A stretch of 12,963 nucleotides of DNA from a virus (Duplodnaviria; Heunggongvirae; Uroviricota; Caudoviricetes). The notes beneath the pieces were generated by a model. The model was not told the DNA's origin. It saw only the letters and a program-made list of their open reading frames with translations, and did not search any database. The position numbers and the translations under genes were made by a program. This document shows, one piece after another, positions 1 through 12,963 of the stretch (the first letter of the stretch is position 1; every line of letters begins with the position of its first letter). The stretch spans positions 1-12,963 of IMG/VR virus record IMGVR_UViG_2541047825_000010; one strand, written 5' to 3'.

Positions 1-1377
1 TCATACGTCAGCCCCTTGTGCATATCGTCTGCCACGCGCAGCAGGTGCATTTGATGCTGTGCAAATCTGTCTGGCTTCATCCTGGTCACATGCAACAAAG
101 TGTCCGTTGCAGAACCGCTGGTAAACCGTACCAAGTGAGCCAAAACGGTTTTTCGTCACAATGATTTCAGCAAATGGCGCGGCGCTACTGTTCTCGTCAT
201 ATACAGCTTCCCGATAGAGCATGATGATTGAGTCTGCGTCCTGTTCAATGCTTCCTGAATCACGCAAATCTGCGTTTGTCGGGCGTTTGTTTGGTCGCTT
301 CTCAACATCGCGCGAAAGCTGACTCAGGGAGATAACAGGCGTTTTCAGGTCTTTCGCCATCGCCTTCAGGCTTCCGGAGATGTGAGCAATTGCGAGGTCG
401 TTGCGATCTGCTTTCGGCTTCTCAATCAGGCCAAGATAATCCACCATGATGAGTGACAGGTTTGGATTTTCCTGTTTGTGCCGTTCTGCGATTGAGCGTA
501 TTTCTTCGACCGATAACCGCGAGGCATCGACTACCCATACATCCAAATCTGCAAGCTGACTCATGCCGTTAGCAACGCGCGCCCAGCCTTCGTCATCCAT
601 CGATGCAGGATTTCGCAGCACACTAACCGACATCCTCCCGGCGTTGGCAATACTTCGCTCTGCAATCTGCAATGCGCTCATTTCCATTGAGAAAATCAAC
701 ACTCCGCGCCGGACGTCAGAACCAGGAATAACGCGGCTTGCAACGCCTTCGGCAATCTTCAGCGCCAGTTCGGTTTTACCCATACCAGGACGAGCGGCGA
801 TAATCACCAGGTCTTCTGCGTTCATCCCTCCGGTGATGGCGTCAAGTTCGTCGATTCCGGTCTTCAGGGTATCTGACTCTTCTCCGTTCCTCAGACGCCT
901 GTCAAGCGTGTCAGTGTAGTCAGTGATGATTTCCCCTAACCGTACCGGTTTAACCTCGTCACGGGGCTTTCTGATGGCTGAAAGACGCTTTACAAGTTCA
1001 TCCATCGCCTGACTCGATGCGTCGATGGTTCCGCTCTGAATTGGTTCACGCATTTCATCCATGATTTCCAGCACCAGACGGCGGTGATAGTTATCCGCGA
1101 CCATTCCGGCATATCCCTTCAGGTTTGCGGCACTCGGGCAGTTTTTGCTGGTCATCAGGATTGACGTGAAATGCTCCTCTCCGCACGCCTCGGCAACCAT
1201 CAGCGCGTCGATTAAATTTCTGTTTCGCGCCTGCTTGCGGATAACCTCGAAGGCTTTCCGGTAGAGCGGAATTGAAAACGCTTCCGGCTCCAGCGTTGCC
1301 AGAACGTCGCTGGCGGTTGGAGTTAATCCACCAATCAGCAGGCCACCGATAACGCTCGCTTCGATATCCTGTCTCAT
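1..1377 (-). CDS. Replicative DNA helicase, DnaB family (phage P22 gene 12-type), 458 aa
   Basis: Full-length 458-aa ORF. Walker A P-loop [14 protein letters not shown] plus DnaB-like motifs [28 protein letters not shown]. Start ATG overlaps the stop of the upstream O-like gene (ATGA, 1374-1377). Stop codon is at window positions 1-3. Confidence 0.9.
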
Positions 1378-2321
1378 GCAATCCCCCTGTCTGCAAACTT
1401 CCCTTCCCGTACTCCCGTTAACGAATCTTCCCTCAACAGGTAATCAAAATCAGCCGTCCAGCCCGTGTCGTTGTCTCCGAAGTAAAACGGCTTGGCCTGA
1501 TGCACAAACGCCCTGACATACGCTCTGAAACCGTCCACGTTTGGCGTTTTCAGTTGCGGGATGATTTTCTTCAGGCGGCGTTTGCGTTTCTCGTTGACTG
1601 CAACAGCATGTGGAAGTCTGTCACCGACTTCGGTGTTGTAGGCGTTCAGGAAGGATTCGTAGTCGATTCGTTCTGCCTTGCGACGTTCAGGTTTAACCTG
1701 CCCATCGCCGCCCCCATTGGGGGGTAGGGGGGTATTATTTATATTCTTGTTAATACCTTCTTGTTCATGATGTGCGGTTGTTTGTGCGGCTTCATGTGCG
1801 CTTTCATGTGCGGAATGTGCGCTGAAAGCTGCGCCATTACTGGCTTCGTCATGTGCGGCATCATGTGCGGTTGTTTGTGCGGCATCATGTGCGGGTAAAT
1901 TGTCCATTTTTTGAGCATATTCATGGTAATTTGTGATGGTGATCACACGACCTTTTTGCTTCTCTCCATCAATGGAGATCATCCCTTCTTTCACAAAAAC
2001 CTGAAGCATCCGCTCAACCTGATCACGGCTTGCTGGCTTGCCATGTCTGTCGCATAACTGAAGACCTAAATCAGCTGCTGTCACAACCAGTTGACCGGGT
2101 TGCAGATGCCATTCATGACCTTTGAAATTCGCTTTGTATGGCTTTCTGGCGGCATTCAGGAGAAGGTTTTCCCACAGGGTGCGAAGATAAACATCTTTCG
2201 CCCATGACTGTTTCAGAATGCTCCGGTACAACGGAATGTAACCAGTTTTCTGGTTCTCCATCCTGTTGCTCCTGCGCTCGTGTGCGGCGCTGAAATCGTA
2301 GATTTTTGCTGTATTGCTCAT
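1374..2321 (-). CDS. Replication initiator, lambda O / P22 gene 18-like, 315 aa
   Basis: N-terminus [10 protein letters not shown] resembles lambda O (MTNTAKILNF, recalled). Lies between cII and the helicase as in lambdoid replication modules. Its central part is encoded by iteron repeats, giving a His/Ala-rich linker ([18 protein letters not shown]...). Confidence 0.85.
1765..1895. repeat. Candidate origin of replication: iterons inside the O-like gene, next to an AT-rich tract (1731-1764)
   Basis: About seven direct copies of a CATGTGCGG-type motif. The longer unit ATGTGCGGTTGTTTGTGCGGC occurs twice (about 1770 and 1870). The AT-rich block follows in the gene's reading direction, as in lambda ori. 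Confidence 0.6.
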
Positions 2322-2323
2322 AA

Positions 2324-2596
2324 CTACCTGCCTTGACGAAAGACCTTAAGAACATCGTTAAACTGACTTACGGATATGTCTTCTTTGAGAAGCTTTTCCA
2401 GAAATGCGTTTGGAATGAACGTATATCCCTCCTCTTTTGGTAGAGACGGGAGCAACGCCCTCGCCTCAGCCTTCAGAAGCTCAGTTCTGGCAACTTTCAC
2501 AAAAGAGATTTGAGTTCTTTCATCAATGGAACGAAGGAAGCGCAAACGCTTAGCTTCTTTGTGTGTATCAGGTGGATTAAAGCCTTTGTTTCGCAT
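2324..2596 (-). CDS. Hypothetical protein, 90 aa, between cII and the O-like gene
   Basis: Internal ATG at 2594-2596 preceded by a GAGG Shine-Dalgarno. The longer 193-aa track ORF would overlap cII, so the short start is preferred. No motif recognised. Confidence 0.5.
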   Translation of the reverse strand: MRNKGFNPPDTHKEAKRLRFLRSIDERTQISFVKVARTELLKAEARALLPSLPKEEGYTFIPNAFLEKLLKEDISVSQFNDVLKVFRQGR

Positions 2597-2601
2597 ATAA
2601 T
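2573..2601 (+). promoter_or_regulatory. Candidate Po promoter for the oop-like RNA
   Basis: -10 TATAAT at 2596-2601 with a weak -35 TGGATT at 2573-2578 (17-bp spacer), facing the cII 3' end. Confidence 0.4.
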
Positions 2602-2607
2602 TACCTC

Positions 2608-2672
2608 GTTGGATGTTGTTAAAATTCCATTTGTATTTGATCAGAACGCTCGGTTGCCGCCGGGCGTTTTTT
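2608..2672 (+). ncRNA. oop: oop-like antisense RNA overlapping the 3' end of cII
   Basis: 3' portion CAGAACGCTCGGTTGCCGCCGGGCGTTTTTTATT matches the lambda oop 3' end as recalled. Ends in a terminator (stem 2647-2653 / 2660-2666, T-run 2667-2672) lying inside the cII coding 3' end on the opposite strand. 5' end is estimated from the promoter. Confidence 0.55.
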
Positions 2673-2912
2673 ATTGGTGAGAATCGAAGCAACTTGTCGT
2701 GCCAATCGAGCCATGTCGTCGTCAACGACGCCCCATTCAAGAACAGCAAGCAGCATTGAGAACTTTGGAATCCAGTCCCTCTTCCACCTGCTGATCTGCG
2801 ACTTATCAACTCCCACAGCTTCCGCTGTCTTCTCAGTTCCAAGCATTGCGATTTTGTTAAGCAACGCACTCTCGATTCGTAGAGCCTCGTTGCGTTTGTT
2901 TGCACGAACCAT
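2619..2912 (-). CDS. cII: Transcriptional activator CII, 97 aa
   Basis: MVRANKRNEALRIESALLNKIAMLGTEKTAEAVGVDKSQISRWKRDWIPKF... is near-identical to lambda CII as recalled. Upstream context TAAGGAAATACTTACATATG matches lambda. The track ORF start at 2999 is an in-frame upstream extension. Confidence 0.92.
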   Translation of the reverse strand: MVRANKRNEALRIESALLNKIAMLGTEKTAEAVGVDKSQISRWKRDWIPKFSMLLAVLEWGVVDDDMARLARQVASILTNKKRPAATERSDQIQMEF

Positions 2913-2925
2913 ATGTAAGTATTTC
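2890..2925 (+). promoter_or_regulatory. pRE-type CII-activated promoter
   Basis: TTGC-N6-TTGC at 2890-2903 (TTGCGTTTGTTTGC) spanning the cII start, as in lambda pRE. Directed toward cro and c2. Confidence 0.5.
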
Positions 2926-2970
2926 CTTAACAAATAAGGAGTTATGCGCATCAACTTATGCGCGTTGTAT

Positions 2971-3013
2971 TCCCGCATTTCGGCGGGAATGAGGACCATG
3001 ACTGTTAAAGAGC
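2971..3013 (-). promoter_or_regulatory. nutR (boxA + boxB hairpin) between cro and cII
   Basis: On the minus strand: boxA GCTCTTTAACA and boxB TCCCGCCGAAATGCGGGA. Both are identical to the nutL copies at 4104-4144. Confidence 0.6.
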
Positions 3014-3020
3014 AATTTGC

Positions 3021-3206
3021 TTATGCCGCTTTGCGGTAAGCGCTTTCTTGATACTTCAGGGCGCCAGCTGTAACGACTTCCAGTCGATAGGCGTCTTTCT
3101 CTGGGATGACTTCCTTCCACTGAGAGACTGCTGCGTCGCTAATGCCTAACGCTTTAGCTACAGCACGCTGGGTTCCGAAGTGGTCGATAACATCTTTCTT
3201 GTACAT
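3021..3206 (-). CDS. cro: Cro repressor, P22 type, 61 aa
   Basis: MYKKDVIDHFGTQRAVAKALGISDAAVSQWKEVIPEKDAYRLE... is near-identical to P22 Cro as recalled. Divergent from c2 across the operator region. Confidence 0.92.
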   Translation of the reverse strand: MYKKDVIDHFGTQRAVAKALGISDAAVSQWKEVIPEKDAYRLEVVTAGALKYQESAYRKAA

Positions 3207-3220
3207 AGACTCGCTCCGAA

Positions 3221-3286
3221 ATTAAAGAACACTTAAATTATCCACTAAAGGAATCTTAAGTCAAGTTTATTTAAGATGTCTTAACT
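3221..3286. promoter_or_regulatory. OR1-OR3 operators with divergent PR (toward cro) and PRM (toward c2)
   Basis: Three 18-bp pseudo-palindromes of P22 type: ATTAAAGAACACTTAAAT (3221-3238), ACTAAAGGAATCTTAAGT (3244-3261), ATTTAAGATGTCTTAACT (3269-3286). Minus-strand PR: -35 TTGACT (3259-3264), 17-bp spacer, -10 ATAATT (3236-3241). c2 has no Shine-Dalgarno and may be leaderless. Confidence 0.7.
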
Positions 3287-3937
3287 ATGAAAACTCAATT
3301 GATGGGAGAGCGCATTCGCGCTCGGAGAAAAGAACTCAAGATCAGGCAGGCCGCACTTGGAAAGATGGTCGGCGTGTCTAATGTTGCCATATCTCAGTGG
3401 GAACGCTCTGAGACAGAGCCAAATGGAGAGAATCTTCTCGCCCTGGCTAATGCGTTGAAGTGTTCCCCTGACTATCTGATGAAAGGAGAGGAAAGTCTTT
3501 CAAACATTGCCTATCACAGTAGGCATGATCCAAGAGGGTCATACCCTCTGATTAGCTGGGTGAGCGCAGGATGCTGGATGGAAGCTGTAGAACCATATCA
3601 TAAGCGTGCAATAGATAACTGGTACGATACAACCGTAGACTGTTCAGAAGATTCGTTTTGGTTGGACGTGAAGGGAGACTCAATGACGGCTCCGGCCGGT
3701 CTCAGTATCCCTGAAGGAATGATAATACTCGTCGATCCTGAAGTAGAGCCGCGTAACGGGAAACTGGTAGTTGCAAAGCTCGAAGGAGAAAACGAGGCAA
3801 CTTTCAAGAAGTTAGTTATTGATGCAGGCAGGAAGTTTCTAAAACCACTTAACCCACAATATCCGATGATCGAGATCAACGGAAACTGCAAAATCATCGG
3901 CGTAGTTGTCGATGCAAAACTAGCAAACCTTCCATAA
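3287..3937 (+). CDS. c2: Prophage repressor C2 (CI-type, HTH plus LexA-like S24 autopeptidase domain), 216 aa
   Basis: Near-identical to P22 C2 as recalled (MxTQLMGERIRARRKxLKIRQAALGKMVGVSNVAISQWERSETEPNGENLL..., C-terminal GDSM...KL). Confidence 0.93.
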   Translation: MKTQLMGERIRARRKELKIRQAALGKMVGVSNVAISQWERSETEPNGENLLALANALKCSPDYLMKGEESLSNIAYHSRHDPRGSYPLISWVSAGCWMEAVEPYHKRAIDNWYDTTVDCSEDSFWLDVKGDSMTAPAGLSIPEGMIILVDPEVEPRNGKLVVAKLEGENEATFKKLVIDAGRKFLKPLNPQYPMIEINGNCKIIGVVVDAKLANLP

Positions 3938-3960
3938 GGGGGCATTCGCCCCTTTTTTTT
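3938..3960 (+). terminator. Rho-independent terminator after c2
   Basis: GGGGC-ATTC-GCCCC hairpin followed by eight T. Confidence 0.7.
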
Positions 3961-4002
3961 ATTTCCTTTAAAAATCAAAGCCAAACTTAAGTTACGAAAG
4001 AA

Positions 4003-4064
4003 AATTTAAGTTTTCTTCAAAAATACTCTTGACCATTAATTAAAGAGATCTTAAATTTAAGCCA
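4003..4064 (+). promoter_or_regulatory. OL operators and PL promoter
   Basis: Operator-like 18-mers ATTTAAGTTTTCTTCAAA (4004-4021) and ATTAAAGAGATCTTAAAT (4039-4056). -35 TTGACC (4029-4034), 17-bp spacer, -10 TAAATT (4052-4057), with the operator overlapping the promoter. Confidence 0.55.
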
Positions 4065-4103
4065 TCAGCAGGACGCTGGAAGCCAAACGGAACAGATTGG
4101 CAG

Positions 4104-4144
4104 GCTCTTTAACATTGATGGGATTGTCCCGCCGAAATGCGGGA
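4104..4144 (+). promoter_or_regulatory. nutL (boxA GCTCTTTAACA, boxB hairpin TCCCGC-CGAAAT-GCGGGA)
   Basis: Identical boxA and boxB to the minus-strand copy after cro. Lies in the PL leader upstream of N. Confidence 0.6.
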
Positions 4145-4160
4145 ACCAAAGAGTAGTTGG

Positions 4161-4232
4161 CTTTGGGGTGACGTGAAGTGCAGCTGCACGACGGCAACCG
4201 GAAGATAAGCACCCGGCGCGTCACCGCCAAAG
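4161..4232 (+). promoter_or_regulatory. Long-range stem-loop in the N leader
   Basis: CTTTGGGGTGACG (4161-4173) pairs with CGTCACCGCCAAAG (4219-4232). Encloses a perfect 12-bp palindrome GTGCAGCTGCAC (4178-4189). Lies 20 nt upstream of the N start. Confidence 0.4.
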
Positions 4233-4251
4233 TCAATCATCGGAGGTCAAC

Positions 4252-4551
4252 ATGACAGTAGTCATTACATATCTGGCTGACGATAACGCCAGAAATCGCC
4301 GCAGAGCACGCAGACAGGCTCAACGTGAACAGGCAATGCAAGAGCAGCGACTGGCGCGAAAAATTGCGCTAAAGCTCTCTGGTTGCGTCAGGGCAGATAA
4401 AGCAGCATCACTCGGAAGCCTTCGCTGCAAGAAGGCAGAAGAAGTCGAGCGTAAACAGAACCGTATTTACTACCGCAAGCCACGCAGTGAAATGGGTGTG
4501 ACTTGTGTTGGTCGCCAGAAAATGAAATTAGGCAGCAAACCACTTATTTGA
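4252..4551 (+). CDS. N: Antitermination protein N (P22 gene 24 equivalent), 99 aa
   Basis: N-terminal arginine-rich motif NARNRRRARRQAQREQ. C-terminus ...NRIYYRKPRSEMGVTCVGRQKMKLGSKPLI resembles the lambda N C-terminus as recalled. First gene after PL and nutL. Shine-Dalgarno GGAGG. Confidence 0.85.
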   Translation: MTVVITYLADDNARNRRRARRQAQREQAMQEQRLARKIALKLSGCVRADKAASLGSLRCKKAEEVERKQNRIYYRKPRSEMGVTCVGRQKMKLGSKPLI

Positions 4552-4559
4552 GGTGAGAT

Positions 4560-5030
4560 ATGACAAAATCATGGAGCGTACCTTTTCCTGAATCAGAAAC
4601 TGAACATGATGGAATGCCTGTTTTCTGGAGATTCCAGGCGACAGTTGAAGAAGATGGAATCAAAATATTCGCACTTCAATATATAGCTTTTCATCAGACA
4701 GAGCATTATGCATGGTTGGTTCCTGCGCATTGGATTATTGATTTTAAACCAGCACCAAATCAGTGGTTACGGGAATGGAAACAAAGGAGAAATAGATATG
4801 CAATTAAGAAAGTAGCAAAAAATGCAGAAAGATCTTTTGCATTCCCAACGAAGAAACTTGCCATTGAAAGTTTATTGCGCCGGAAGAAATACCATTTAAT
4901 GAGAATCAAACAAGATTTGGCTGTTGTATCAACTCTTGTTGATGGGATGAAGAATATTGATACATCAACACCAGATATTGAATATAACTTTGGACACAAC
5001 CAAGAAACAGAAAATTGGGTATTCTACTAG
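4560..5030 (+). CDS. Hypothetical protein, 156 aa, AT-rich moron
   Basis: ATG 8 nt after the N stop with Shine-Dalgarno AGGTGAG. G+C is lower than neighbours by eye. No predicted transmembrane segment and no recognised motif. Confidence 0.7.
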   Translation: MTKSWSVPFPESETEHDGMPVFWRFQATVEEDGIKIFALQYIAFHQTEHYAWLVPAHWIIDFKPAPNQWLREWKQRRNRYAIKKVAKNAERSFAFPTKKLAIESLLRRKKYHLMRIKQDLAVVSTLVDGMKNIDTSTPDIEYNFGHNQETENWVFY

Positions 5031-5054
5031 GCCGCATAGTCGGCCTTTATTTTT
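5029..5054 (+). terminator. Rho-independent terminator after the 156-aa ORF
   Basis: AGGCCG-CATAGT-CGGCCT hairpin followed by TTATTTTT. Confidence 0.6.
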
Positions 5055-5076
5055 GGCATAAACAACAGAGGTGAAT

Positions 5077-5211
5077 ATGAACGCAGTTGAATTTACAAAA
5101 TGGATGGCAGAGCAAGATATCACAGGAGCCGACGAAAAGGCTGTGTACTACATGGCTCTGCTATGGATTCACAAAGCAAAAGAGGCTGCAAATGCTCTTG
5201 GAGGTGAGTAA
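5077..5211 (+). CDS. Hypothetical small protein, 44 aa (MNAVEFTKWMAEQDITGADEKAVYYMALLWIHKAKEAANALGGE)
   Basis: Not in the ORF track (below 60 aa). Shine-Dalgarno AGAGGTGA 3-10 nt upstream of the ATG. Stop overlaps the next ORF's start (TAATG). Confidence 0.4.
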   Translation: MNAVEFTKWMAEQDITGADEKAVYYMALLWIHKAKEAANALGGE

Positions 5212-5399
5212 TGAAAGTAAAAATAACTGCTTCTAATACCAGTTTTGTTAGTGTTGGTGATATTACAGAAGTAATAACAAACCATGATGGAACACAAGTT
5301 ATGTGGTCTGATTTTTGTAAAAGATATGAGCGAGTCACTTGGTGTAAACTCGTATGGGGCGTCGAATACGAAGAATTACCTGAAATGCATGACGAATAA
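5211..5399 (+). CDS. Hypothetical protein, 62 aa
   Basis: Translationally coupled to the 44-aa ORF. Occupies the ral/sieB-type interval but has no recognised similarity. Confidence 0.5.
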   Translation: MKVKITASNTSFVSVGDITEVITNHDGTQVMWSDFCKRYERVTWCKLVWGVEYEELPEMHDE

Positions 5400-5494
5400 G
5401 CACTGTGTATTCATTCCAACGAGTGAATACACGGAGCAATGTCGCTCGTAACTAAACAGGAGCCGACTTGTTCTGATTATTGGAAATCTTCTTT

Positions 5495-5520
5495 GCCCTC
5501 CAGTGTGAGGGCCTTTTTAT
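5495..5520 (+). terminator. Rho-independent terminator upstream of cIII
   Basis: GCCCTC-CAGTGT-GAGGGC hairpin followed by CTTTTTAT. Confidence 0.55.
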
Positions 5521-5584
5521 ATGCATACCAATAACGCTTCACTCGAGGCGTTTTCGTTATGCAATCAAACAGAAGGAGCATCCT

Positions 5585-5755
5585 ATGCAACAGTTCGCTA
5601 TTGCAGGGGCGGCATCGGTTCGCCCTTTCAACCCGATTTTATCGGTACAGCATTCACGAAAAAATATTTTAACCGGAGCAGACTTTAAACAACCAAGAAT
5701 GAAAAGTTTGCTCGAAAAGCTTTGGGATATTTTGAAACAACAAGGCCGTCCATGA
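5585..5755 (+). CDS. cIII: CIII (FtsH inhibitor that stabilises CII), 56 aa
   Basis: MQQFAIAG... and the central ...MKSLLEKLWDILKQQG resemble lambda CIII (MQYAIAG...WKRLIDILNQPG, recalled). Shine-Dalgarno AAGGAG. The track ORF start at 5480 lies inside the upstream terminator and was rejected. Confidence 0.8.
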   Translation: MQQFAIAGAASVRPFNPILSVQHSRKNILTGADFKQPRMKSLLEKLWDILKQQGRP

Positions 5756-5922
5756 GTTTTATAGATAACTGGTCAGACGAAGAATTCATTCGTCAGATGA
5801 AAGAATTAATCGGTAACGAAGGAGATATTCATGTCACTTGCAACCACCGTGAAGGAGAGCAAGTTACAGAGACGCATGTACACGCGGCAGGCGTTAATGT
5901 ATCGCCAGAAGGGAGATCGTGA
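5752..5922 (+). CDS. Hypothetical protein, 56 aa, in the Kil position
   Basis: ATG overlaps the cIII stop (ATGA). Lambda kil likewise overlaps the cIII end. No sequence similarity recognised, so the Kil role is positional only. Confidence 0.45.
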   Translation: MSFIDNWSDEEFIRQMKELIGNEGDIHVTCNHREGEQVTETHVHAAGVNVSPEGRS

Positions 5923-6011
5923 AGGTGTTCGCGTCTTTTTAAATGCGGCAAAGACTGAAGTATTAAATCAGCGTTATTTCCTTGGGCCATGTCCATTCTG
6001 AGAACAATCAT

Positions 6012-6617
6012 ATGAGCAAAGAATTTTACGCAAGACTGGCAGCTATTCAGGAGAATCTGAACGCGCCAAAGAATCAGTACAACTCATTCGGCAAATATAA
6101 ATACAGAAGCTGCGAAGACATTCTTGAAGGCGTTAAGCCGTTACTGAATGGCCTGTTTTTATCAATCAGCGATGAAGTTGTGTTGATTGGTGATCGGTAT
6201 TACGTGAAAGCCACGGCAACTATTACCGATGGCGAAAACAGTCATACAGCAACCGCTCTTGCACGAGAGGAAGAAAGCAAGAAAGGAATGGATTCTGCAC
6301 AAGTTACTGGAGCTACAAGCTCTTATGCACGCAAGTATTGCCTCAATGGTTTATTCGGCATTGATGATGCGAAAGATGCAGATACCGACGAGCATAAACA
6401 TCAGCAGAACGCAGCAGCAAAGCAATCAAAACCATCACCTACACCTGAACAGGTTCTAAAAGCATTCACTGACGCAGCAATGCAGAAAAACACCGTAGAA
6501 GAGCTTAAACAGGCGTTCGCCAAAGCGTGGAAGATGCTCGAAGGCACACCGGAGCAGCACAAAGCGCAGGACGTTTACAACATCAGACGAGACGAATTAG
6601 AAGGAGCGGCTGCTTAA
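6012..6617 (+). CDS. erf: Erf, essential recombination function (single-strand annealing protein), 201 aa
   Basis: MSKEFYARLAAIQENLNAPKNQYNSFGKYKYRSCEDILEGVKPLL... closely matches P22 Erf as recalled. First ATG in frame; the track start at 5982 is a TTG. Confidence 0.9.
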   Translation: MSKEFYARLAAIQENLNAPKNQYNSFGKYKYRSCEDILEGVKPLLNGLFLSISDEVVLIGDRYYVKATATITDGENSHTATALAREEESKKGMDSAQVTGATSSYARKYCLNGLFGIDDAKDADTDEHKHQQNAAAKQSKPSPTPEQVLKAFTDAAMQKNTVEELKQAFAKAWKMLEGTPEQHKAQDVYNIRRDELEGAAA

Positions 6618-7000
6618 TGGCACATTCGATTACAGTAAGACTAAACAAACCCGCAAGAGAGTTTCAGGCCGGGGAAAATATCGGATTCAACATCCGTGCT
6701 GGCGTTCAGTATTACGATCGCCAGACAAAAAAGAAAGAATGGACAAACTACAGCGCCGTTGTATTTGCCAAGCCGGGAGCGCAAGCGGATTACTACCGTA
6801 GTGTTCTTGTTGAAGGTGGCATTGTGGAAATTACCGGAGAAAACATCAGGGTTGATGTTTATCAGGGGCAAAATGGTCAATCAATCACTCTTGAATTACT
6901 GAATGCAAAGATTGGATTTGCAGCTTCAGGAAACAGCCAACAGCAGCAAAGTAGCAATCATCAAAATCATCCTGAATACGACGATTCAATTCCATTCTAG
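6617..7000 (+). CDS. Compact SSB-like single-stranded DNA-binding protein, 127 aa
   Basis: C-terminal tip PEYDDSIPF resembles the conserved bacterial SSB tail DDDIPF, after a Q-rich linker and a short strand-rich N-terminal domain. Shine-Dalgarno AAGGAG. TAATG overlap with erf. Confidence 0.65.
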   Translation: MAHSITVRLNKPAREFQAGENIGFNIRAGVQYYDRQTKKKEWTNYSAVVFAKPGAQADYYRSVLVEGGIVEITGENIRVDVYQGQNGQSITLELLNAKIGFAASGNSQQQQSSNHQNHPEYDDSIPF

Positions 7001-7023
7001 ATTAGCAAAATAAGGATTCCATT

Positions 7024-7317
7024 ATGCCAGCGCCTCTGTATGGTGCGGATGACCCGCGCCGCTGTTCCGGCAATTCCGTATCGGAGGTGCTGGATAAATT
7101 CAGGAAAAACTACAACCGGATAATGTCGATACCGCAGGAAACGAAAGAGGAAAAGGAATTTCGCCATTGTATATGGCTTGCAGAGAAAGAAGAACGCGAG
7201 CGAATTTACCAGACATCAATCCGACCATTCCGCAAAGCCACATATACCCACTTCCCTGAAATTGACCCGCGCCTGCGTAATTACCGCTCACGCTATGGCG
7301 CTATCAGTAATGACTGA
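7024..7317 (+). CDS. Hypothetical protein, 97 aa
   Basis: Shine-Dalgarno TAAGGA 7 nt upstream. Position after erf and the 97-aa length are compatible with P22 Abc2 (anti-RecBCD), but this rests on synteny and length only. Confidence 0.6.
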
Positions 7318-7327
7318 GGAATTTACC

Positions 7328-7492
7328 ATGAGAGGACTTGCATACAATCCCGGCATTCTTCCGGCAGAAATGATTATTCGCCAACGCGTAAAGCCAATGC
7401 CATCGAGAGAGGAATTGCTTAAGAGAAATTCTTTTCCATCAGTGAATCAAAACAAATATCTGAATGCGATGTGGCGGAGTGGGAAAAAATGA
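7328..7492 (+). CDS. Hypothetical protein, 54 aa
   Basis: Shine-Dalgarno GAGGA 7 nt upstream. Stop overlaps the next start. Confidence 0.45.
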
Positions 7493-7926
7493 AACAAATG
7501 TCACTAATTGAGATGGATGGTTTTCTGAAAGGTAAATGCATCCCACGAGATTTAAAGGTTAACGAAACAAACGCTGAATATCTGGTGCGTAAATTTGCTG
7601 AAGCGGAGGCCAAGTGCGCGGCGCTGGCTGCTGAAGTTGAGGCTGTGAAATCAGCACATCAAGATGCTGTAAACACCATCATGTATACCGCCAATCGAAC
7701 GGGTGTTTTATACACAGAGAAGGCAATTCAAATGTCCTGCAAAACCCCGGCCACCGATGCTTTCCTGACTGAAGTCCGGGCTAAGGCGTTTGATGACCTT
7801 TGCGCGGCGTTCGTTAAGCACGCGTCGGTGTCCGGGCTGGACGATGGCGACTGCGTTACGGTGAAAGAGGCGACTGACGCCCTGCTGCATTGTGCGGAAC
7901 AGCTTCACAAGGGAGTGCATTCATGA
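7489..7926 (+). CDS. Hypothetical protein, 145 aa
   Basis: ATGA overlap with the upstream ORF. Shine-Dalgarno GGAG. Ala/Glu-rich predicted helical segment. No family recognised. Confidence 0.6.
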
Positions 7927-8156
7927 GCAACCTACTACCATGTCCATTCTGTGGCGGTGCAGCGCACGTTGCCAGCGAAGCAGATCACCCTGAATATGGC
8001 TCTGGCGGTCGATTCTATTTCGTTCGATGCGGTACGTGTCGCGCTCAATCTGGTAGCAAATATGCAGCGCCTGGAAATGACTGCGCGATTTTTTATTCAG
8101 AGGTTAGAGCAGAGTGGAATCAGCGAGCAAAGGAGGCAACCAGTGAGCAAGATTGA
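7923..8156 (+). CDS. Lar-family-like zinc-ribbon protein (restriction alleviation), 77 aa
   Basis: N-terminal LLPCPFCGG...C..C zinc-ribbon signature typical of the Lar family as recalled. ATGA overlap with the upstream gene. Confidence 0.6.
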   Translation: MSNLLPCPFCGGAAHVASEADHPEYGSGGRFYFVRCGTCRAQSGSKYAAPGNDCAIFYSEVRAEWNQRAKEATSEQD

Positions 8157-8550
8157 CTATCAGGCACTGCGTGAAGCGGCAGAGAAAGCCGGTGAAGATA
8201 AGTGGCAGGCTAAAAAAATAAATGGTGATTTTTTCGTTATTCGTCACGGTAGTTATACAAGACAGCATGGCTACACATCGTATCAACCCATTGCGGAGAT
8301 TGATTGTAAGCCAGTCCGGGATTTTGTTGCCAAGGCTAATCCGGCTACCGTGCTGGAATTACTGGATGAACTGGAAGCAGCAAAAAAGCGCATTGCAGAA
8401 CTGGAAGCGCGGGAAATATCGCTCCCGGAACGTAGCAGCATGCTTCATCGAACAGATTTTCACGATGATTACCAAACGGTAATGGCATACAAAGTTTCTG
8501 AAGTCATCGATGCAATCCGCGCTACTGGCATTCGCATCAAAGGAGAGTGA
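8143..8550 (+). CDS. Ead/Ea22-like protein, 135 aa
   Basis: GTG start 6 nt after a strong AGGAGG. KIDYQALREAAEKAGED and NPATVLELLDELEAAKKRIAELEA resemble Ea22-family motifs as recalled. Overlaps the Lar-like gene by 14 nt. Confidence 0.6.
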   Translation: MSKIDYQALREAAEKAGEDKWQAKKINGDFFVIRHGSYTRQHGYTSYQPIAEIDCKPVRDFVAKANPATVLELLDELEAAKKRIAELEAREISLPERSSMLHRTDFHDDYQTVMAYKVSEVIDAIRATGIRIKGE

Positions 8551-8551
8551 T

Positions 8552-8839
8552 ATGGCAACTTTGCAGGAATTAATCGACCTGACGCCAGAACAGGAAAAAG
8601 CGTGGAATCGCCTTGTGAAGGCTGTAAAGGATTTCAGGGCAGCCGGAGGAAAGTTTTATAGCGTCCTGGACACGCTGAGCGCATACAACGGCGAGCACGT
8701 TGCCAGCATTGATAACGATAAGGGCTACCACACTGCAAGCGTCTATATGCCTAGCATTGATGCGCCAGGGCTAACCAGTTGGGCTGATGATTGGCACGGC
8801 ATCACGCTGAAAGATGGCGTTGAAGTGGATGAGGACTAA
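8552..8839 (+). CDS. Hypothetical protein, 95 aa
   Basis: Shine-Dalgarno AGGAGAG. ATG 1 nt after the upstream stop. Confidence 0.6.
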   Translation: MATLQELIDLTPEQEKAWNRLVKAVKDFRAAGGKFYSVLDTLSAYNGEHVASIDNDKGYHTASVYMPSIDAPGLTSWADDWHGITLKDGVEVDED

Positions 8840-8842
8840 CAC

Positions 8843-9529
8843 ATGACTACTTTTACCGACAAAGAACTGATTAAAGAAATCAGAGAGCGAATCGGCAGCC
8901 TGGACGTGCGAGACAATATTGAGCGCCTGGCTTATGAAATCGCACTGGCATCGCTGGCAGCAGTATCGGATGAACGAGCAGCCTATGAATTATTTATGGA
9001 GAAGCGTTTCGGGGAATCTGTAGATCGCCGTAGGGCAAAAAATGGCGATAGAGAATACATGGCATGGGATATGGCGCTTGGCTGGATTATCTGGTGTCAC
9101 CGCGCCGCCATGCTTCAGGGTAGCCAACCTGTAAGCCAAACTTACAACTTGCCAGAATTAATCGAAGGCATGGAAGTTTCCATTGATGTAAGCACTTGTG
9201 ATGCTGATTTAGGTAATCGCTATTTCGGCACCGTCACCGAGGCGTTAGAACTTGATACAGCCAAGAATGGTTACATCCTCCTGGTTCAGGACGCAGAGCC
9301 AAACTTCGATGTAAATGGCAACTATCCGGTAATTCCGGATGGTTGGATAAGCTGTAGTGAGCGAATGCCCCCTCAAGATGATTGGATTTTAATTTATTCA
9401 AAGCACGGCGAGTATATGGCAGGACAGGTGCAAGGGGAATACGTGGAGTTGAGCGACGGCACTTTATCGTGGTTAGGGAACGTCTTGTTCTGGATGACGT
9501 TGCCAGAACCTCCGAAGGGGGCGAAATGA
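8843..9529 (+). CDS. DUF551-like phage protein, 228 aa
   Basis: C-terminal DGWISCSERMPPQDDWILIY...WMTLPEPP resembles the DUF551 signature as recalled. Shine-Dalgarno GAGGA. Confidence 0.7.
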   Translation: MTTFTDKELIKEIRERIGSLDVRDNIERLAYEIALASLAAVSDERAAYELFMEKRFGESVDRRRAKNGDREYMAWDMALGWIIWCHRAAMLQGSQPVSQTYNLPELIEGMEVSIDVSTCDADLGNRYFGTVTEALELDTAKNGYILLVQDAEPNFDVNGNYPVIPDGWISCSERMPPQDDWILIYSKHGEYMAGQVQGEYVELSDGTLSWLGNVLFWMTLPEPPKGAK

Positions 9530-9786
9530 TGGATGTAAAAGAGAAGGTTTTGCAGGTGATGCGTTCCCGGGCTGCCCTGCAAGATAAAGCTCTCGGCGGG
9601 GAATATCCATTCACGATAGCAACCTGGAATCTGCGGTTGGCAATGGAGAAGGAATTTCCTGATGAAGAATGGCGTTCGGCAGATTTGCGCAAAATTCTTA
9701 TGGAGCTGGCTAAAGACGGAACAGTATCCAAAGATACCCATGCCAGCCGGATTGGTCAGGCGGTATGGAGACTGGAGGTGAGGTAA
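9526..9786 (+). CDS. Hypothetical protein, 86 aa
   Basis: ATGA overlap with the upstream stop. Shine-Dalgarno AAGGGGG. Confidence 0.6.
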   Translation: MMDVKEKVLQVMRSRAALQDKALGGEYPFTIATWNLRLAMEKEFPDEEWRSADLRKILMELAKDGTVSKDTHASRIGQAVWRLEVR

Positions 9787-10070
9787 TGGCTAACCTGCAA
9801 CTTGCCGTTAAAGGTGAATACTTCGATGCCATGATTCGCGGGGAGAAAACGGAAGAGTATCGCCTGTGTAATGACTACTGGAATAAGCGCCTCGTTAACC
9901 GTAAGTATGACCGCCTGATTATCACAAAGGGATATCCGAAGCGCGACGATTCCAGCCGCAGAATTGACGTCCCGTATGACGGATATGAAATCAAGACAAT
10001 CACACATCCCCACTTCGGCGATAAACCGGTAAAGGTGTTCGCGATAAAGGTGAATATCGGCAATGAATAA
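9786..10070 (+). CDS. ASCH-like small beta-barrel protein, 94 aa
   Basis: LAVKGEYFDAMIRGEKTEEYR fits the ASCH pattern (YF..I..G.KT.E.R) as recalled. TAATG coupling. Shine-Dalgarno GGAGGTGAGG. Confidence 0.55.
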   Translation: MANLQLAVKGEYFDAMIRGEKTEEYRLCNDYWNKRLVNRKYDRLIITKGYPKRDDSSRRIDVPYDGYEIKTITHPHFGDKPVKVFAIKVNIGNE

Positions 10071-10104
10071 CAATCCTCGAACTCGCGGGGATTTCTTTTA
10101 TCTG

Positions 10105-10130
10105 AACTCGCTACGGCGGGTTTTGTTTTA
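10105..10130 (+). terminator. Rho-independent terminator closing the coupled operon
   Basis: AACTCGC-TACG-GCGGGTT hairpin followed by TTGTTTTA. A degenerate upstream copy sits at 10078-10100. Confidence 0.45.
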
Positions 10131-10141
10131 TGGAGATGATT

Positions 10142-10441
10142 ATGGCCTGTTCAACATTCAACCATCTAACGTTACAGAAATACCAGCCAGACCCTGAAGA
10201 TTTATGCTCACTGTGTGGCGGAAATCATGGTAAAGCCGCCATGATCGAATGTAAGGACAAAATCCACATTTGCCTTAATTGCGTTGATGTCCTCGTTGAT
10301 ATCAAAAATGAGAGAGAAGATAAAAAGCGTAGCGAGGCTATTCGCGCATTAGATTCATGGATGCGAGATGGGTATAGTGCTGCGCAAATTTATGACTTCG
10401 CAATATCAAAAGGCGAAATACCAGGAGTGCGCATCGAATAA
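10142..10441 (+). CDS. Hypothetical Cys-rich (CxxC...CxxC) protein, 99 aa
   Basis: Three in-frame ATGs (10130, 10136, 10142). 10142 is chosen for the GGAGA Shine-Dalgarno 5 nt upstream. Cysteine pairs CSLCGG and CLNC. Confidence 0.55.
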   Translation: MACSTFNHLTLQKYQPDPEDLCSLCGGNHGKAAMIECKDKIHICLNCVDVLVDIKNEREDKKRSEAIRALDSWMRDGYSAAQIYDFAISKGEIPGVRIE

Positions 10442-10483
10442 GACGTAACCAATATTCGAATTGAAGAACTGAAAGAACACCAA

Positions 10484-10506
10484 GCCGCCTGATGGCGGTT
10501 TTTTAT
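10484..10506 (+). terminator. Rho-independent terminator
   Basis: CCGCC-TGAT-GGCGG hairpin followed by TTTTTTATT. Confidence 0.6.
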
Positions 10507-10518
10507 TGGAGACAAGAA

Positions 10519-10863
10519 ATGTCAGATTTGGCTATGAAGATTTTGAAATGGCAAACGACTGGCGATGTTGGCATCAGTAGCGCAACTCTTGCCTCAATCG
10601 CATGTGGACTGAAAAAGAATATCTATGGTCATCACTTCGGCGCTCCACATGACGCAGCAGATTTCCGACGATGCGTTGCACTTGTTGAGCAGATTCCAGA
10701 AGTCAGAGATTCATTCGACAAGGTTGCAAAGCGTGTTCCGGCATTCAAAGGCATTCTCAACGAATGGGATTCCCTCGTTGCTCTGTTGAAGTCTGAAATG
10801 AAGATACACGGAAACAAAGCACCAGAGACTTACAGAAGAATTAGCGAGTTACGCAAGGATTAA
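10519..10863 (+). CDS. Hypothetical protein, 114 aa
   Basis: Shine-Dalgarno GGAGA 6 nt upstream. The gene sits between the terminator at 10484-10506 and the two downstream terminators. No family recognised. Confidence 0.6.
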   Translation: MSDLAMKILKWQTTGDVGISSATLASIACGLKKNIYGHHFGAPHDAADFRRCVALVEQIPEVRDSFDKVAKRVPAFKGILNEWDSLVALLKSEMKIHGNKAPETYRRISELRKD

Positions 10864-10868
10864 CCACA

Positions 10869-10945
10869 GCCTCACACTCGATGAGGCCTGTTCATTTCTC
10901 AAGATATCCAGACCTACCATCGCCGCATCAATGCGGTTTTTTATT
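10869..10945 (+). terminator. Two tandem terminator hairpins
   Basis: GCCTCA-CACTCGA-TGAGGC (10869-10887, weak T-run) and CCGCA-TCAA-TGCGG followed by TTTTTTATT (10923-10945). Confidence 0.55.
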
Positions 10946-10952
10946 ACCTGAT

Positions 10953-10968
10953 TTGCAGGTTCGATTCC
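10953..10968 (+). other. tRNA 3'-half fragment: T-arm portion TTGCAGGTTCGATTCC (att-associated)
   Basis: 16-nt match to the T-stem and T-loop of a tRNA (argW-type tRNA-Arg as recalled). Similarity stops right after GATTCC. Confidence 0.4.
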
Positions 10969-10987
10969 CTATTCGGAGATAGCACTC

Positions 10988-11188
10988 ATGCAACACGAAC
11001 TACAGCCTGATTCACTGGTTGATTTGAAATTCATCATGGCCGATACTGGCTTTGGTAAAACCTTCATCTACGACCGGATTAAGTCCGGCGACCTGCCAAA
11101 AGCCAAAGTTATCCACGGGCGAGCAAGATGGTTATATCGTGACCATTGTGAATTCAAAAATAAGCTCTTAAGCCGCGCCAATGGGTAA
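10988..11188 (+). CDS. AlpA/Xis-like excisionase-type DNA-binding protein, 66 aa
   Basis: LVDLKFIMADTGFGKTFIYDRIKSGDLPKAKVIHGRARW fits the AlpA-family HTH pattern as recalled. Shine-Dalgarno GGAGA. Lies next to the att-like tRNA fragments. Confidence 0.65.
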   Translation: MQHELQPDSLVDLKFIMADTGFGKTFIYDRIKSGDLPKAKVIHGRARWLYRDHCEFKNKLLSRANG

Positions 11189-11261
11189 AATAGCGGGTAA
11201 AATATTTCTCACATCTAAAAAACACCATTCTAATCAATCCCCTGCCGCGTCAAGTAGATGT

Positions 11262-11276
11262 CTGCAGGGGACACCA
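11262..11276 (+). other. tRNA 3'-end fragment CTGCAGGGGACACCA (acceptor 3' strand plus CCA; att-associated)
   Basis: Matches the 3' terminus of the same tRNA. No corresponding 5' half anywhere in the window. Confidence 0.45.
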
Positions 11277-11662
11277 GATACCCTTCAAACGATATCTACC
11301 TTCACCCCGTAAAAGATAAGTTTGGCAGCACATTTGCCCTATCTACTCATTTTTCCTGCAACAGGTTGAAATCTCAACACGGTCAGAAAACGCTGATGAC
11401 TAAACAGCCCTGGGCTGGGCGATGTAACCATCACACACAATCCTGATCGCGAAATATGGCGTGACTTGATACTTCACTCCACAATGCTTTCCTTGATGAA
11501 TTCGCAGGCCCGTGATACACGGGACAGGTCGCTGAATTACGACAATGCCCTGGAAATCAGCGAGCCGTGTATCCGGAGTACATTTGAGCGACTGTACCAG
11601 AACATGAATGAGGCGTTTGGATTAGGCGATTATTAGCAGGGCTAAGCATTTTGGTATTATTA

Positions 11663-11706
11663 TTTTCCGGTTGAGGGATATAGAGCTATCGACAACAACC
11701 GGAAAA
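11663..11706. terminator. Inverted repeat, candidate bidirectional terminator at the cscB 3' end
   Basis: TTTTCCGGTTG (11663-11673) and CAACCGGAAAA (11696-11706) with a 22-nt loop and AT-rich flanks. Lies between convergent reading frames. Confidence 0.4.
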
Positions 11707-11715
11707 AGTTTACGT

Positions 11716-12963
11716 TTATATTGCTGAAGGTACTGGCGTTTCCATCACTATTTGCTCACGTTTTTTACTCAGGAAGAAAATGCCAAATAGCAACATCAGG
11801 CAGACAATACCCGAAATTGCGAAAAAAACCGTCTGGTAGCCTGCGTGGTCAAAGAGTATCCCAGTCGGCGTTGAAAGCAGCACAATCCCCAACGAACTGG
11901 CAATTTGAAAACCAATCAGAAAGATCGTCGACGACAGGCGCTTATCAAAATTTGCCACGCTGTATTTGAAGACGGATATGACACAAAGTGGAACCTCAAT
12001 GGCATGTAACAGCTTCACTAATGAAATAATCCAGGGGTTAACGAATAGCGCGCAGGAAAGGATACGCAACGCCATAATCACAACACCGATAAGTAATGCA
12101 TTTTTTGGCCCTACCCGATTCACAAAGAAAGGAATAATCGCCATGCACAGCGCTTCGAGTACCACCTGGAATGAGTTGAGATAACCATACAGGCGCGTTC
12201 CTACATCGTGGGATTCGAATAAACCTGCATAAAAGACAGGAAAGAGTTGTTGATCAAAAATGTTATAGAAAGACCACGTCCCCACAATAAATATGACGAA
12301 AACCCAGAAGTTTCGATCCTTGAAAACTGCGATAAAATCCTCTTTTTTTACCCCTCCCACATCCGCCGCTACGCACTGGTGTTCCTGCTCTTTAAAACGC
12401 ATGTTGATCATCATAAATACAGCGCCAAATAGAGAGACCAACCAGAAGTTGATATGGGGACTGATACTAAAAAATATGCCAGCAAAGAATGCGCCAATAG
12501 CATAGCCAAAAGATCCCCAGGCGCGCGCTGTTCCATATTCGAAATGAAAATTTCGCGCCATTTTTTCGGTGAAGCTGTCAAGCAAACCGCATCCCGCCAG
12601 ATACCCCAGACCAAAAAAGAGCGCCCCCAGAATTAAACCTACAGAAAAATTGCTTTGCAGTAACGGTTCATAAACGTAAATCATAAACGGTCCGGTCAAG
12701 ACCAAGATGAAACTCATACACCAGATGAGCGGTTTCTTCAGACCGAGTTTATCCTGAACGATGCCGTAGAACATCATAAATAGAATGCTGGTAAACTGGT
12801 TGACCGAATAAAGTGTACCTAATTCCGTCCCTGTCAACCCTAGATGTCCTTTCAGCCAAATAGCGTATAATGACCACCACAGCGACCAGGAAATAAAAAA
12901 GAGAAATGAGTAACTGGATGCAAAACGATAGTACGCATTTCTGAATGGAATATTCAGTGCCAT
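11716..12963 (-). CDS. cscB: Sucrose:H+ symporter, LacY-family MFS (CscB-like), 415 aa
   Basis: Twelve-helix hydrophobic profile. Clear LacY-like blocks (DKLGLKK, GPFMIYVYEPLLQ, EYGTARAWGSFGYAIG, PKNALLIG). N-terminus MALNIPFRNAYYRF matches CscB as recalled. Start codon is at the window edge. Confidence 0.85.
   Translation of the reverse strand: MALNIPFRNAYYRFASSYSFLFFISWSLWWSLYAIWLKGHLGLTGTELGTLYSVNQFTSILFMMFYGIVQDKLGLKKPLIWCMSFILVLTGPFMIYVYEPLLQSNFSVGLILGALFFGLGYLAGCGLLDSFTEKMARNFHFEYGTARAWGSFGYAIGAFFAGIFFSISPHINFWLVSLFGAVFMMINMRFKEQEHQCVAADVGGVKKEDFIAVFKDRNFWVFVIFIVGTWSFYNIFDQQLFPVFYAGLFESHDVGTRLYGYLNSFQVVLEALCMAIIPFFVNRVGPKNALLIGVVIMALRILSCALFVNPWIISLVKLLHAIEVPLCVISVFKYSVANFDKRLSSTIFLIGFQIASSLGIVLLSTPTGILFDHAGYQTVFFAISGIVCLMLLFGIFFLSKKREQIVMETPVPSAI

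Follow-up and report, generated by a model that had tools for sequence, protein, structure and literature searches.

In a 12,963-nucleotide (nt) stretch of a caudoviricete genome (IMG/VR record IMGVR_UViG_2541047825_000010, positions 1 to 12,963; hereafter the window), we investigated two small coupled open reading frames (ORFs), ORF1 and ORF2, and the inverted repeat that follows them. The plus strand of the window is the early-left (pL) operon of a lambdoid or P22-like prophage, and we conclude that this interval probably holds two independent pL modules, namely a pair of coupled accessory ORFs and an RNA hairpin that acts as the 5' processing or boundary element of the small RNA (sRNA) PreS. 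The PreS/tL2a module is already known and is present in lambda; the modest novelty lies in the covariation, which marks the hairpin as a component of this locus that is under selection and as a candidate processing signal. An earlier reading made from the letters alone (the sequence-only reading) had grouped the repeat with the ORF pair and had proposed for it either an RNA processing site or a protein-binding site. Our analysis instead assigns the repeat to a separate and widespread module, PreS (LPR1) plus tL2a, which stands behind many different genes, and an RNA processing site remains the best description of it, with a cleavage that we infer.

The repeat begins at the sixth base past the ORF2 stop codon and consists of GTGTATTCA (5405-5413) and TGAATACAC (5424-5432), which are perfectly complementary. 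The sequence-only reading had described just these nine base pairs (bp), which are present as it said, but folding showed that they form the lower part of a longer stem, with a 12-bp core (GUGUAUUCAUUC / GAGUGAAUACAC, one G·U pair included) closed by a CAAC tetraloop and extended at its base by U5404·G5433 and C5403-G5434 to 14 bp in all. G5400-C5401 may further pair with G5436-C5437, and with this extension the arms are 17 nt long and show 82% Watson-Crick complementarity. The stem has a stability of -18 kcal/mol, and no inverted repeat in the window is longer than this hairpin. Shuffling the window by dinucleotides gave a mean of 0.46 perfect 9-bp repeats with loops of 3-12 nt, and at least one in 33 of 100 shuffles; a repeat of this length is thus within chance in 13 kb, and the case for its reality rests on comparative evidence.

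The hairpin resembles neither a Rho-independent terminator nor a nut site. The stem is A+U-rich (4 of 12 pairs are G-C) and is followed by GGAGCAAUG with no U-tract, and the terminator scan was silent over 5405-5432, in agreement with the view of the sequence-only reading that this is not a classic terminator. Matches resembling boxA (CGCTCTTA-like) occur in the window solely at 3006-3014 (minus strand) and 12386-12394, and the 14-bp stem with its CAAC loop is unlike boxB, a short hairpin with a purine-rich pentaloop, so that nothing here points to a nut site. RNase III sites of the T7 R1.1 type offer about two turns of largely double-stranded RNA, often with an internal loop where the cut falls, and their rnc-dependent cleavage leaves 5'-phosphate and 3'-OH ends. 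Measured against such a site, the 14-bp stem with a possible 2-bp extension past an A·A mismatch is shorter than typical substrates.

The sRNA PreS, formerly LPR1, is described in the accessible text of a preprint as an Hfq-dependent sRNA of lambda that is encoded between ral and ea10, ends at tL2a and exists in forms of about 88 nt and 68 nt (bioRxiv 10.1101/2024.10.31.621285). According to the same text, PreS is confined to the lytic cycle, being absent in lysogens and appearing within 10 min after induction like the pL transcripts, and it activates dnaN translation and represses alaS, with host DnaN raised in favour of lytic replication (bioRxiv 10.1101/2024.10.31.621285). We found that positions 5400-5512 of the window are 100% identical to the lambda ral-ea10 interval, from the hairpin through the PreS body with its seed to the terminator stem. 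Among the primers given with the preprint, cloning primer P810 starts with GAGCAATGTCGCTCGTAACT, which corresponds to window position 5434 and thereby places the PreS +1 there. The alaS-pairing segment, given in the preprint as nt 42-56, falls on 5475-5489 and agrees with this +1, and the stated size of about 88 nt fits an RNA running from 5434 to the U-tract. Furthermore, the primer, seed-deletion and M1/M2 sequences of its Table S5 all map exactly to the window, and the full-deletion arm in the preprint ends in ...GTGTATTCATTCCAACGAGTGAATACACG (...GAATACACG), reaching to the end of the repeat and one G beyond. The repeat occupies -29 to -2 relative to the PreS +1, and the +1 nucleotide itself, G5434, still belongs to the hairpin as its final paired base.

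The window thus carries PreS as judged from its sequence, including the dnaN/alaS seed, from its place within the pL operon, with the ral-type slot before it and ea10/cIII after it, and from its 3' end at a tL2a-type terminator, an element annotated as a terminator in HK97, mEpX1 and HK620. From the identity to lambda, Hfq binding, lytic expression and dnaN activation may be expected of the copy in the window as well. The lambda PreS/tL2a module occupies the same pL position, after the ral-type slot and before ea10/cIII, and differs in the U-tract and downstream flank (CTTTTTAT in the window, GATTTTTTAT in lambda) and in the gene upstream, which is ral in lambda and ORF2 in the window. The hairpin lies just outside the lambda PreS as its authors delimit it, and the accessible preprint text does not discuss it.

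Rfam searches of the whole window at gathering thresholds and of 5000-5620 at E<=10 returned noise only, and searches of Salmonella-type modules and lambda returned only the Lambda_thermo control match; PreS accordingly has no family in Rfam 15. A scan for tRNA and tmRNA found nothing, and a full-text literature search with the hairpin and terminator sequences gave one irrelevant match. Several named sRNAs were considered for the hairpin/PreS element and rejected: svsR maps to the 3' end of cI, AgvB and AsxR are located downstream of pR', and the paper on the Pas sRNAs is without mention of PreS, ral, ea10 or cIII. A 31-amino-acid (aa) ORF with an ATG start (5439-5534) was likewise rejected as a gene, as the whole stretch belongs to PreS and its terminator, Salmonella-type copies have ATA in place of the start codon, and family searches gave no match.

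The comparative evidence began to separate the hairpin from the ORFs in a search with window 5060-5440, in which just the last 49 bases (5392-5440) were common to hundreds of phages, among them HK97, 933W and H-19B, at 100% identity. The same block occurs in about 2100 of 5426 complete E. coli genomes. In such phages it directly follows other genes, for example gp45/L0079, and the genes seen upstream of the hairpin include ral, gp45, pentapeptide-repeat genes and others. Conservation of the repeat in related phages, on which the sequence-only reading had made its proposal depend, was therefore looked for and found. Salmonella P22-like phages match PreS from +1 onward only, and their copies carry different inverted repeats in the same place, between the conserved GAATAAGCAC and GAGCAAT.

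We then compiled 232 PreS-like loci from two viral-contig scans together with the loci from earlier comparisons. As a result, a hairpin was found at the PreS 5' position in all 232, and the stems fell into four classes of unrelated sequence at a fixed distance from GAGCAAT: class A with 122 loci (5' arm GUGUAUUCAUUC, loop CAAC, 3' arm GAGUGAAUACAC), class B with 47 (UAUAGCAGAUU, UACG, AGUCUGCUAUG), class C with 35 (UAAUGACCAUU, UUAAU, AGUGGUCAUUG) and class D with 28 (UAAUGCGGA, UUCUGUGAU, UCCGCAUUG). Across the 27 distinct sequences, 95.5% of cells were paired, compared with 25-53% when the partners were slid, and compensatory changes on both sides were seen at 8 of the 14 pairs, with a covariation score of 0.507 against at most 0.143 in the slid controls. 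RNAalifold independently predicted the same helix. Variation within a class lies mostly in the loop or yields G·U pairs, and one class B variant carries a double change from A-U to U-A; little or no change is seen in the apical A-U / U·G / U-A pairs or in the basal C-G pair. Since the G·U wobble pairs exist in the plus-sense RNA only, the element should act in the pL transcript and not in duplex DNA or in the other strand. The contact with PreS is equally constant, the +1 G being the last paired base in 106 of 122 copies and lying 1-2 nt past the stem in nearly all others. Furthermore, the hairpin classes and the PreS body types reassort in all combinations, indicating that the hairpin is itself a small module.

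Two viral contigs carry rare variants. In one (L327) both partners of a C-G pair are changed to give A·A, and the fold is weakened to -5.9 kcal/mol; in the other (L275) a single G-to-U change leaves -7.1 kcal/mol. These may be decaying prophage copies. A scan of species-wide genome contigs with the 15-mer GAGCAATRTCGCTCG gave, among the matches listed, at least one relevant locus, the rest being chance.

In the mechanism that we propose, the N-antiterminated pL transcript would fold the hairpin at 5403-5434, and an endonuclease would cut at its 3' foot and so release PreS with its mature 5' end. The hairpin would stay on the upstream accessory-gene mRNA as a 3' cap against 3' exonucleases, and it would also insulate PreS folding from whichever gene recombination puts upstream; a 5'-monophosphate on PreS would suit RNase E-type trimming to the 68-nt form. 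The constant contact between the stem foot and +1 suggests that the hairpin positions the cut. More tentatively, and with somewhat less than even confidence, we suggest that the hairpin could be a dedicated maturation signal common to all PreS-type sRNAs of lambdoid and P22-like phages, its shape and invariant pairs being recognised by a nuclease or a double-strand RNA-binding protein that directs the cut at the 3' foot, so that a single cleavage would both make the sRNA 5' end and stabilise the upstream mRNA.

Several points weigh against processing at the hairpin. The cut at 5433/5434 is deduced from the position of the hairpin relative to +1, and the preprint, in its accessible text, is silent on the origin of the PreS 5' end, with neither "hairpin" nor "stem-loop" among its words. 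The stem, 14 bp or about 17 with the mismatch, falls short of the length of canonical RNase III substrates, and the sequence around 5434 misfits the RNase E preference for U two nt downstream of the cut. An N-modified polymerase should pass tL2a, which bears on how the PreS 3' end is formed. On the comparative side, the four stem classes represent few independent lineages, and the loci were found by PreS-derived words, so that hairpin-less copies that also lack those words would be missed.

A rather unlikely alternative, although the strongest of those that we considered, is that the hairpin acts solely on transcription or RNA stability, as a pause site, a 3' exonuclease barrier or a folding insulator, and that the PreS 5' end is made by another nuclease. 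Such a role would suit a structure that is conserved with a free stem sequence, the position directly after the stop codon of the upstream gene, and the stability of the stem. However, the distance from stem to +1 is fixed in all four classes, a constancy that would be difficult to account for without a connection between them. This alternative overlaps with the processing mechanism, and the two are inseparable by sequence alone.

PreS could also be a primary transcript from its own promoter, with the palindrome as promoter or operator DNA, and indeed the repeat sits where a promoter for the published +1 would be. We regard this as improbable, because a promoter scan found no sigma-70-like site near the hairpin on the plus strand, the hexamers at -12 to -7 (AGTGAA in class A, AGTCTG in class B) resemble neither TATAAT nor each other, and the sequence upstream of GAATAAGCAC varies between phages. 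It is the pairing that is conserved rather than the sequence, which misfits a promoter, and the timing given in the preprint text, with PreS absent from lysogens and then seen as early as the pL transcripts, also speaks against it. The lack of promoter-like sequence, the difference in the -10 region between classes and the pL-linked appearance together make it most likely that PreS is cut from the N-antiterminated pL transcript.

We next consider the ORF pair. The two ORFs of 44 and 62 aa lie where the sequence-only reading had placed them and overlap by TAATG, with A5211 as the common base of the ORF1 stop and the ORF2 start. Both have strong Shine-Dalgarno (SD) sequences, GAGGTG at 5068-5073 for ORF1 and GGAGGTGA at 5200-5207 for ORF2. 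The ORF1 protein is MNAVEFTKWMAEQDITGADEKAVYYMALLWIHKAKEAANALGGE. Against its Cronobacter homologue, ORF1 shows 17 synonymous and 7 non-synonymous differences, with a ratio of non-synonymous to synonymous substitution rates (dN/dS) of 0.045, and for ORF2 against homologues that are 65-73% identical the ratio is 0.13-0.25. On these comparisons, ORF1 and ORF2 are genuine, translationally coupled genes under purifying selection. The sequence-only reading had recognised no match for either, but both belong to PHROG families of unknown function (Table 1), with ORF2 also matching phrog_16117 through its C-terminal domain, and RefSeq/PGAP already annotates both as hypothetical proteins. Homologues were found in enterobacterial prophages and in a few metagenome contigs only.

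Functional assignment was not obtained for either protein. Pfam, NCBIfam and PADLOC gave no family for ORF1 or ORF2 at E<=0.1, save one spurious 12-bit match, and neither protein matched the profiles of Ral (PF11058) or other named early-left accessory families. The AlphaFold model of ORF2 has a mean predicted local distance difference test (pLDDT) score of 89.6 and shows a five-stranded barrel with one helix; a Foldseek search of the PDB with this model found no significant fold (best E 0.24, a generic SH3/KOW-like resemblance), and a PDB profile search with ORF2 was empty. An exhaustive hidden Markov model (HMM) search with ORF2 added a few small homologues, plus long proteins with scattered, uninformative Pfam matches. 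The idea that ORF1 is a truncated Y8K6 protein was rejected, the alignment being limited to the last 15 residues, which are encoded by a common linker.

Two observations on ORF2 relatives were made in passing. A 79-aa database protein (P0012) is a frameshifted ORF2 variant that passes the stop codon and runs into the hairpin and the PreS 5' region (...KHCVFIPTSEYTEQCRS), so that its C-terminal extension is really made of non-coding RNA sequence. In addition, a 58-aa ORF2 homologue, 66-68% identical, occurs in metagenome contigs (L016-L018) amid many small unannotated ORFs and without recognisable lambdoid genes, which indicates that the ORF2 family is not restricted to the pL slot.

The position of the pair corresponds to the ral/sieB-type interval proposed by the sequence-only reading. 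The slot follows cI, N and a 156-aa gene like gp45/L0079 and precedes cIII, and the ral gene of lambda lies directly upstream of the identical hairpin. After the ORF pair come the structured stretch of 120 nt, cIII (5585-5755), Erf and SSB, and the opposite strand carries Cro, O-like and DnaB-like genes. Upstream, the accessory slot is bordered by a hairpin that resembles an intrinsic terminator and immediately follows the 156-aa gene; this element recurs in mEpX1 together with the linker GGCATAAACAACAG, and lambda keeps just its 3' half, after ral. With this element upstream of ORF1, the pair should need N antitermination, and no moron-type promoter for it was found on the plus strand at 5030-5077. 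ORF1 and ORF2 would thus be expressed solely when N lets RNA polymerase pass the terminator at 5029-5055.

The slot is bounded by short linkers. A 20-nt linker, GCTCTTGGAGRTGAGTRATG (window 5192-5213; also in loci L005, L010, L013 and L145), contains the SD and the stop/start overlap and is common to unrelated upstream genes: it also ends the unrelated XkdD/Y8K6-family genes that precede ORF2 elsewhere, which accounts for the ALG-x-E C-terminus that their products have in common, and where ORF1 has another second ORF behind it the linker stands between the two. The linker appears to serve as a movable joint for both translational coupling and recombination, and the match to E. coli W starts nearby, at window 5188. 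At the other end, many different upstream genes terminate in ...GCGAATAA, and AACAACAG and GAATAAGCAC bound the cassette precisely where lambda and mEpX1 have ral or nothing.

We also surveyed the 5426 complete E. coli genomes by DNA searches for ORF1, ORF2 and the joined pair. ORF1 was found in 40 genomes, ORF2 in 94 and the joined pair in 27, so that the co-occurrence for which the sequence-only reading had looked to comparative genomics is not fixed. ORF1 occurred without ORF2 in 13 of its 40 genomes, and ORF2 without ORF1 in 67 of its 94. Both ORFs have other partners: ORF1 can be followed by a DUF551 protein or an unrelated ORF of 61-66 aa, and ORF2 is coupled to an XkdD/Y8K6 (PF27050) gene of about 100 aa in Salmonella, E. 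coli W and metagenomes. These counts do not describe an obligate two-gene, toxin-antitoxin-like system. ORF1 and ORF2 are separate cassettes that recombine via the short linkers AACAACAG, GCTCTTGGAGRTGAGTRATG and GAATAAGCAC, and the pair consists of ordinary, exchangeable accessory genes in ordinary lambdoid mosaicism.

It is consequently very improbable that the repeat and the two ORFs work together as a single unit, for instance a toxin-antitoxin or exclusion system of two proteins that has its own 3' RNA element. The tight translational coupling, the adjacency of the three features and the presence of the whole arrangement in 27 genomes would be in keeping with such a unit, but either ORF is found alone, each has other coupled partners, the genes that precede the hairpin elsewhere include ral, gp45 and pentapeptide-repeat genes, and PADLOC, Pfam and NCBIfam gave no match. 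Least probable of all, and hardly to be credited, is a DNA-level element, whether the site of a dimeric protein as the sequence-only reading had suggested, a cruciform, or a recombination hotspot making the mosaic boundary: the repeat does lie at a mosaic joint, flanked by the conserved linkers GAATAAGCAC and GAGCAAT, but four unrelated stems in the same place cannot bind one protein, the changes are compensatory, and the imperfections are G·U wobbles in the plus (pL) sense RNA (G·T in DNA) and C·A mismatches on the other strand.

The arrangement in the window has partial counterparts in known systems. The RNase III sites of T7 early mRNA, of the R1.1 type, are intercistronic hairpins at which a single cut on the 3' side leaves a stabilising hairpin on the upstream message and makes the 5' end of the downstream one. 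The hairpin in the window shares with R1.1 its intercistronic location in a polycistronic early phage transcript and its build, with an upper stem of about one turn, a small loop, a mismatch and a short lower stem. It differs in that the lower stem has just 2-4 bp, the downstream product is an sRNA and not an mRNA, there is no sequence similarity, and the cleavage is a proposed one. DicF is an Hfq-binding sRNA in the dicBF operon of prophage Qin, upstream of the cell-division inhibitor gene dicB, and its processing enzymes are known. Like DicF, PreS is an Hfq-binding sRNA that probably matures from a longer transcript of a lambdoid, immunity-proximal early operon, upstream of a division inhibitor (kil in the case of PreS); the two are unrelated in sequence, and DicF has an Rfam family whereas PreS has none. 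A further parallel is the interval between ral and gene 17 of P22-type phages, in which ORF2 homologues of 62 aa occupy the same slot, coupled to the gene before them by a one-base stop/start overlap and with the hairpin-PreS module after them. The first gene there is XkdD/Y8K6 (PF27050), unrelated to the 44-aa ORF1, and the two share no more than the coupling linker, about 20 nt at their 3' ends.

Table 1. Features of the pL interval in the window, with the basis of each assignment
Feature	Position	Strand	Description and basis
cI-type repressor gene	3287-3937		gene-order context
N	4252-4551	+	gene-order context
156-aa gene, like HK97 gp45 and 933W L0079	4560-5030	+	gene-order context
Intrinsic-terminator-like hairpin	5029-5055	+	AGGCCG CATAGT CGGCCT + TTTATTTTT; terminator scan
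ORF1	5077-5211	+	44 aa, ATG 5077 to TAA 5209-5211; predicted helical small protein; phrog_24660 (E 4e-35); WP_021538742.1
Coupling linker	5192-5213	+	GCTCTTGGAGGTGAGTAATG; holds ORF2 SD and stop/start overlap; recombination joint
ORF2	5211-5399	+	62 aa, ATG 5211 to TAA 5397-5399; predicted small SH3-like beta-barrel; phrog_10407 (E 1.5e-45); WP_000865176.1
Linker at start of PreS module	5394-5403	+	GAATAAGCAC; gives upstream gene its stop codon; alignments
RNA hairpin	5403-5434	+	14-bp stem (core 5405-5416 / 5421-5432), CAAC loop 5417-5420; fold, covariation, RNAalifold
PreS (LPR1) sRNA	5434-5518	+	lambda-identical through terminator stem; primers, numbering, size
PreS seed region	5468-5485	+	TGTTCTGATTATTGGAAA; 18 nt of the published seed deletion; primers P970/P971, M1/M2, Table S5 of the preprint
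tL2a-type intrinsic terminator	5495-5518	+	GCCCTC CAGTGT GAGGGC + CUUUUU; terminator scan; PreS 3' end

Other elements were noted elsewhere in the window. Between cI and N, the inverted repeat AAACTTAAGTT / AATTTAAGTTT and the palindrome CTTAAATTTAAG (3983-4061) flank a promoter-like site at 4029-4057, and these are presumably the OL operators and pL. A 91-aa ORF with a TTG start (5480-5755) spans the tL2a terminator and cIII, and the mEpX1 annotation calls this longer version "putative cIII"; the start codon of cIII proper (phrog_550) is the ATG at 5585. The cIII leader contains a second terminator-like hairpin, AACGCTTCACTCGAGGCGTT followed by TTCGTT (5533-5558), which is conserved in HK97, mEpX1, Dewey and Salmonella copies, and the leader has no Rfam Lambda_thermo match, unlike that of lambda cIII. 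Finally, an 11-bp inverted repeat without mismatches, TTTTCCGGTTG / CAACCGGAAAA, whose arms are separated by 22 nt (11663-11706), lies just past the stop codon of a minus-strand ORF of 415 aa (11716-12963; phrog_17800, unknown function).

For annotation, these results mean that the repeat should go with PreS/tL2a and not with the small ORFs, and that calls of the 31-aa ORF in PreS and of the 91-aa long form of cIII should be avoided. Lambdoid phages have many small early-left accessory genes without an assigned function, and the ORF pair, which contributes two more, is in this respect ordinary. The hairpin is a specific and easily mutated candidate for the element that excises PreS from the long pL transcript, in lambda too. 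If the proposed mechanism is true, the hairpin would be a portable device for sRNA release and mRNA capping, allowing the sRNA to work whatever gene stands upstream, and it would help to explain how PreS stays functional at a place where the upstream genes constantly swap.

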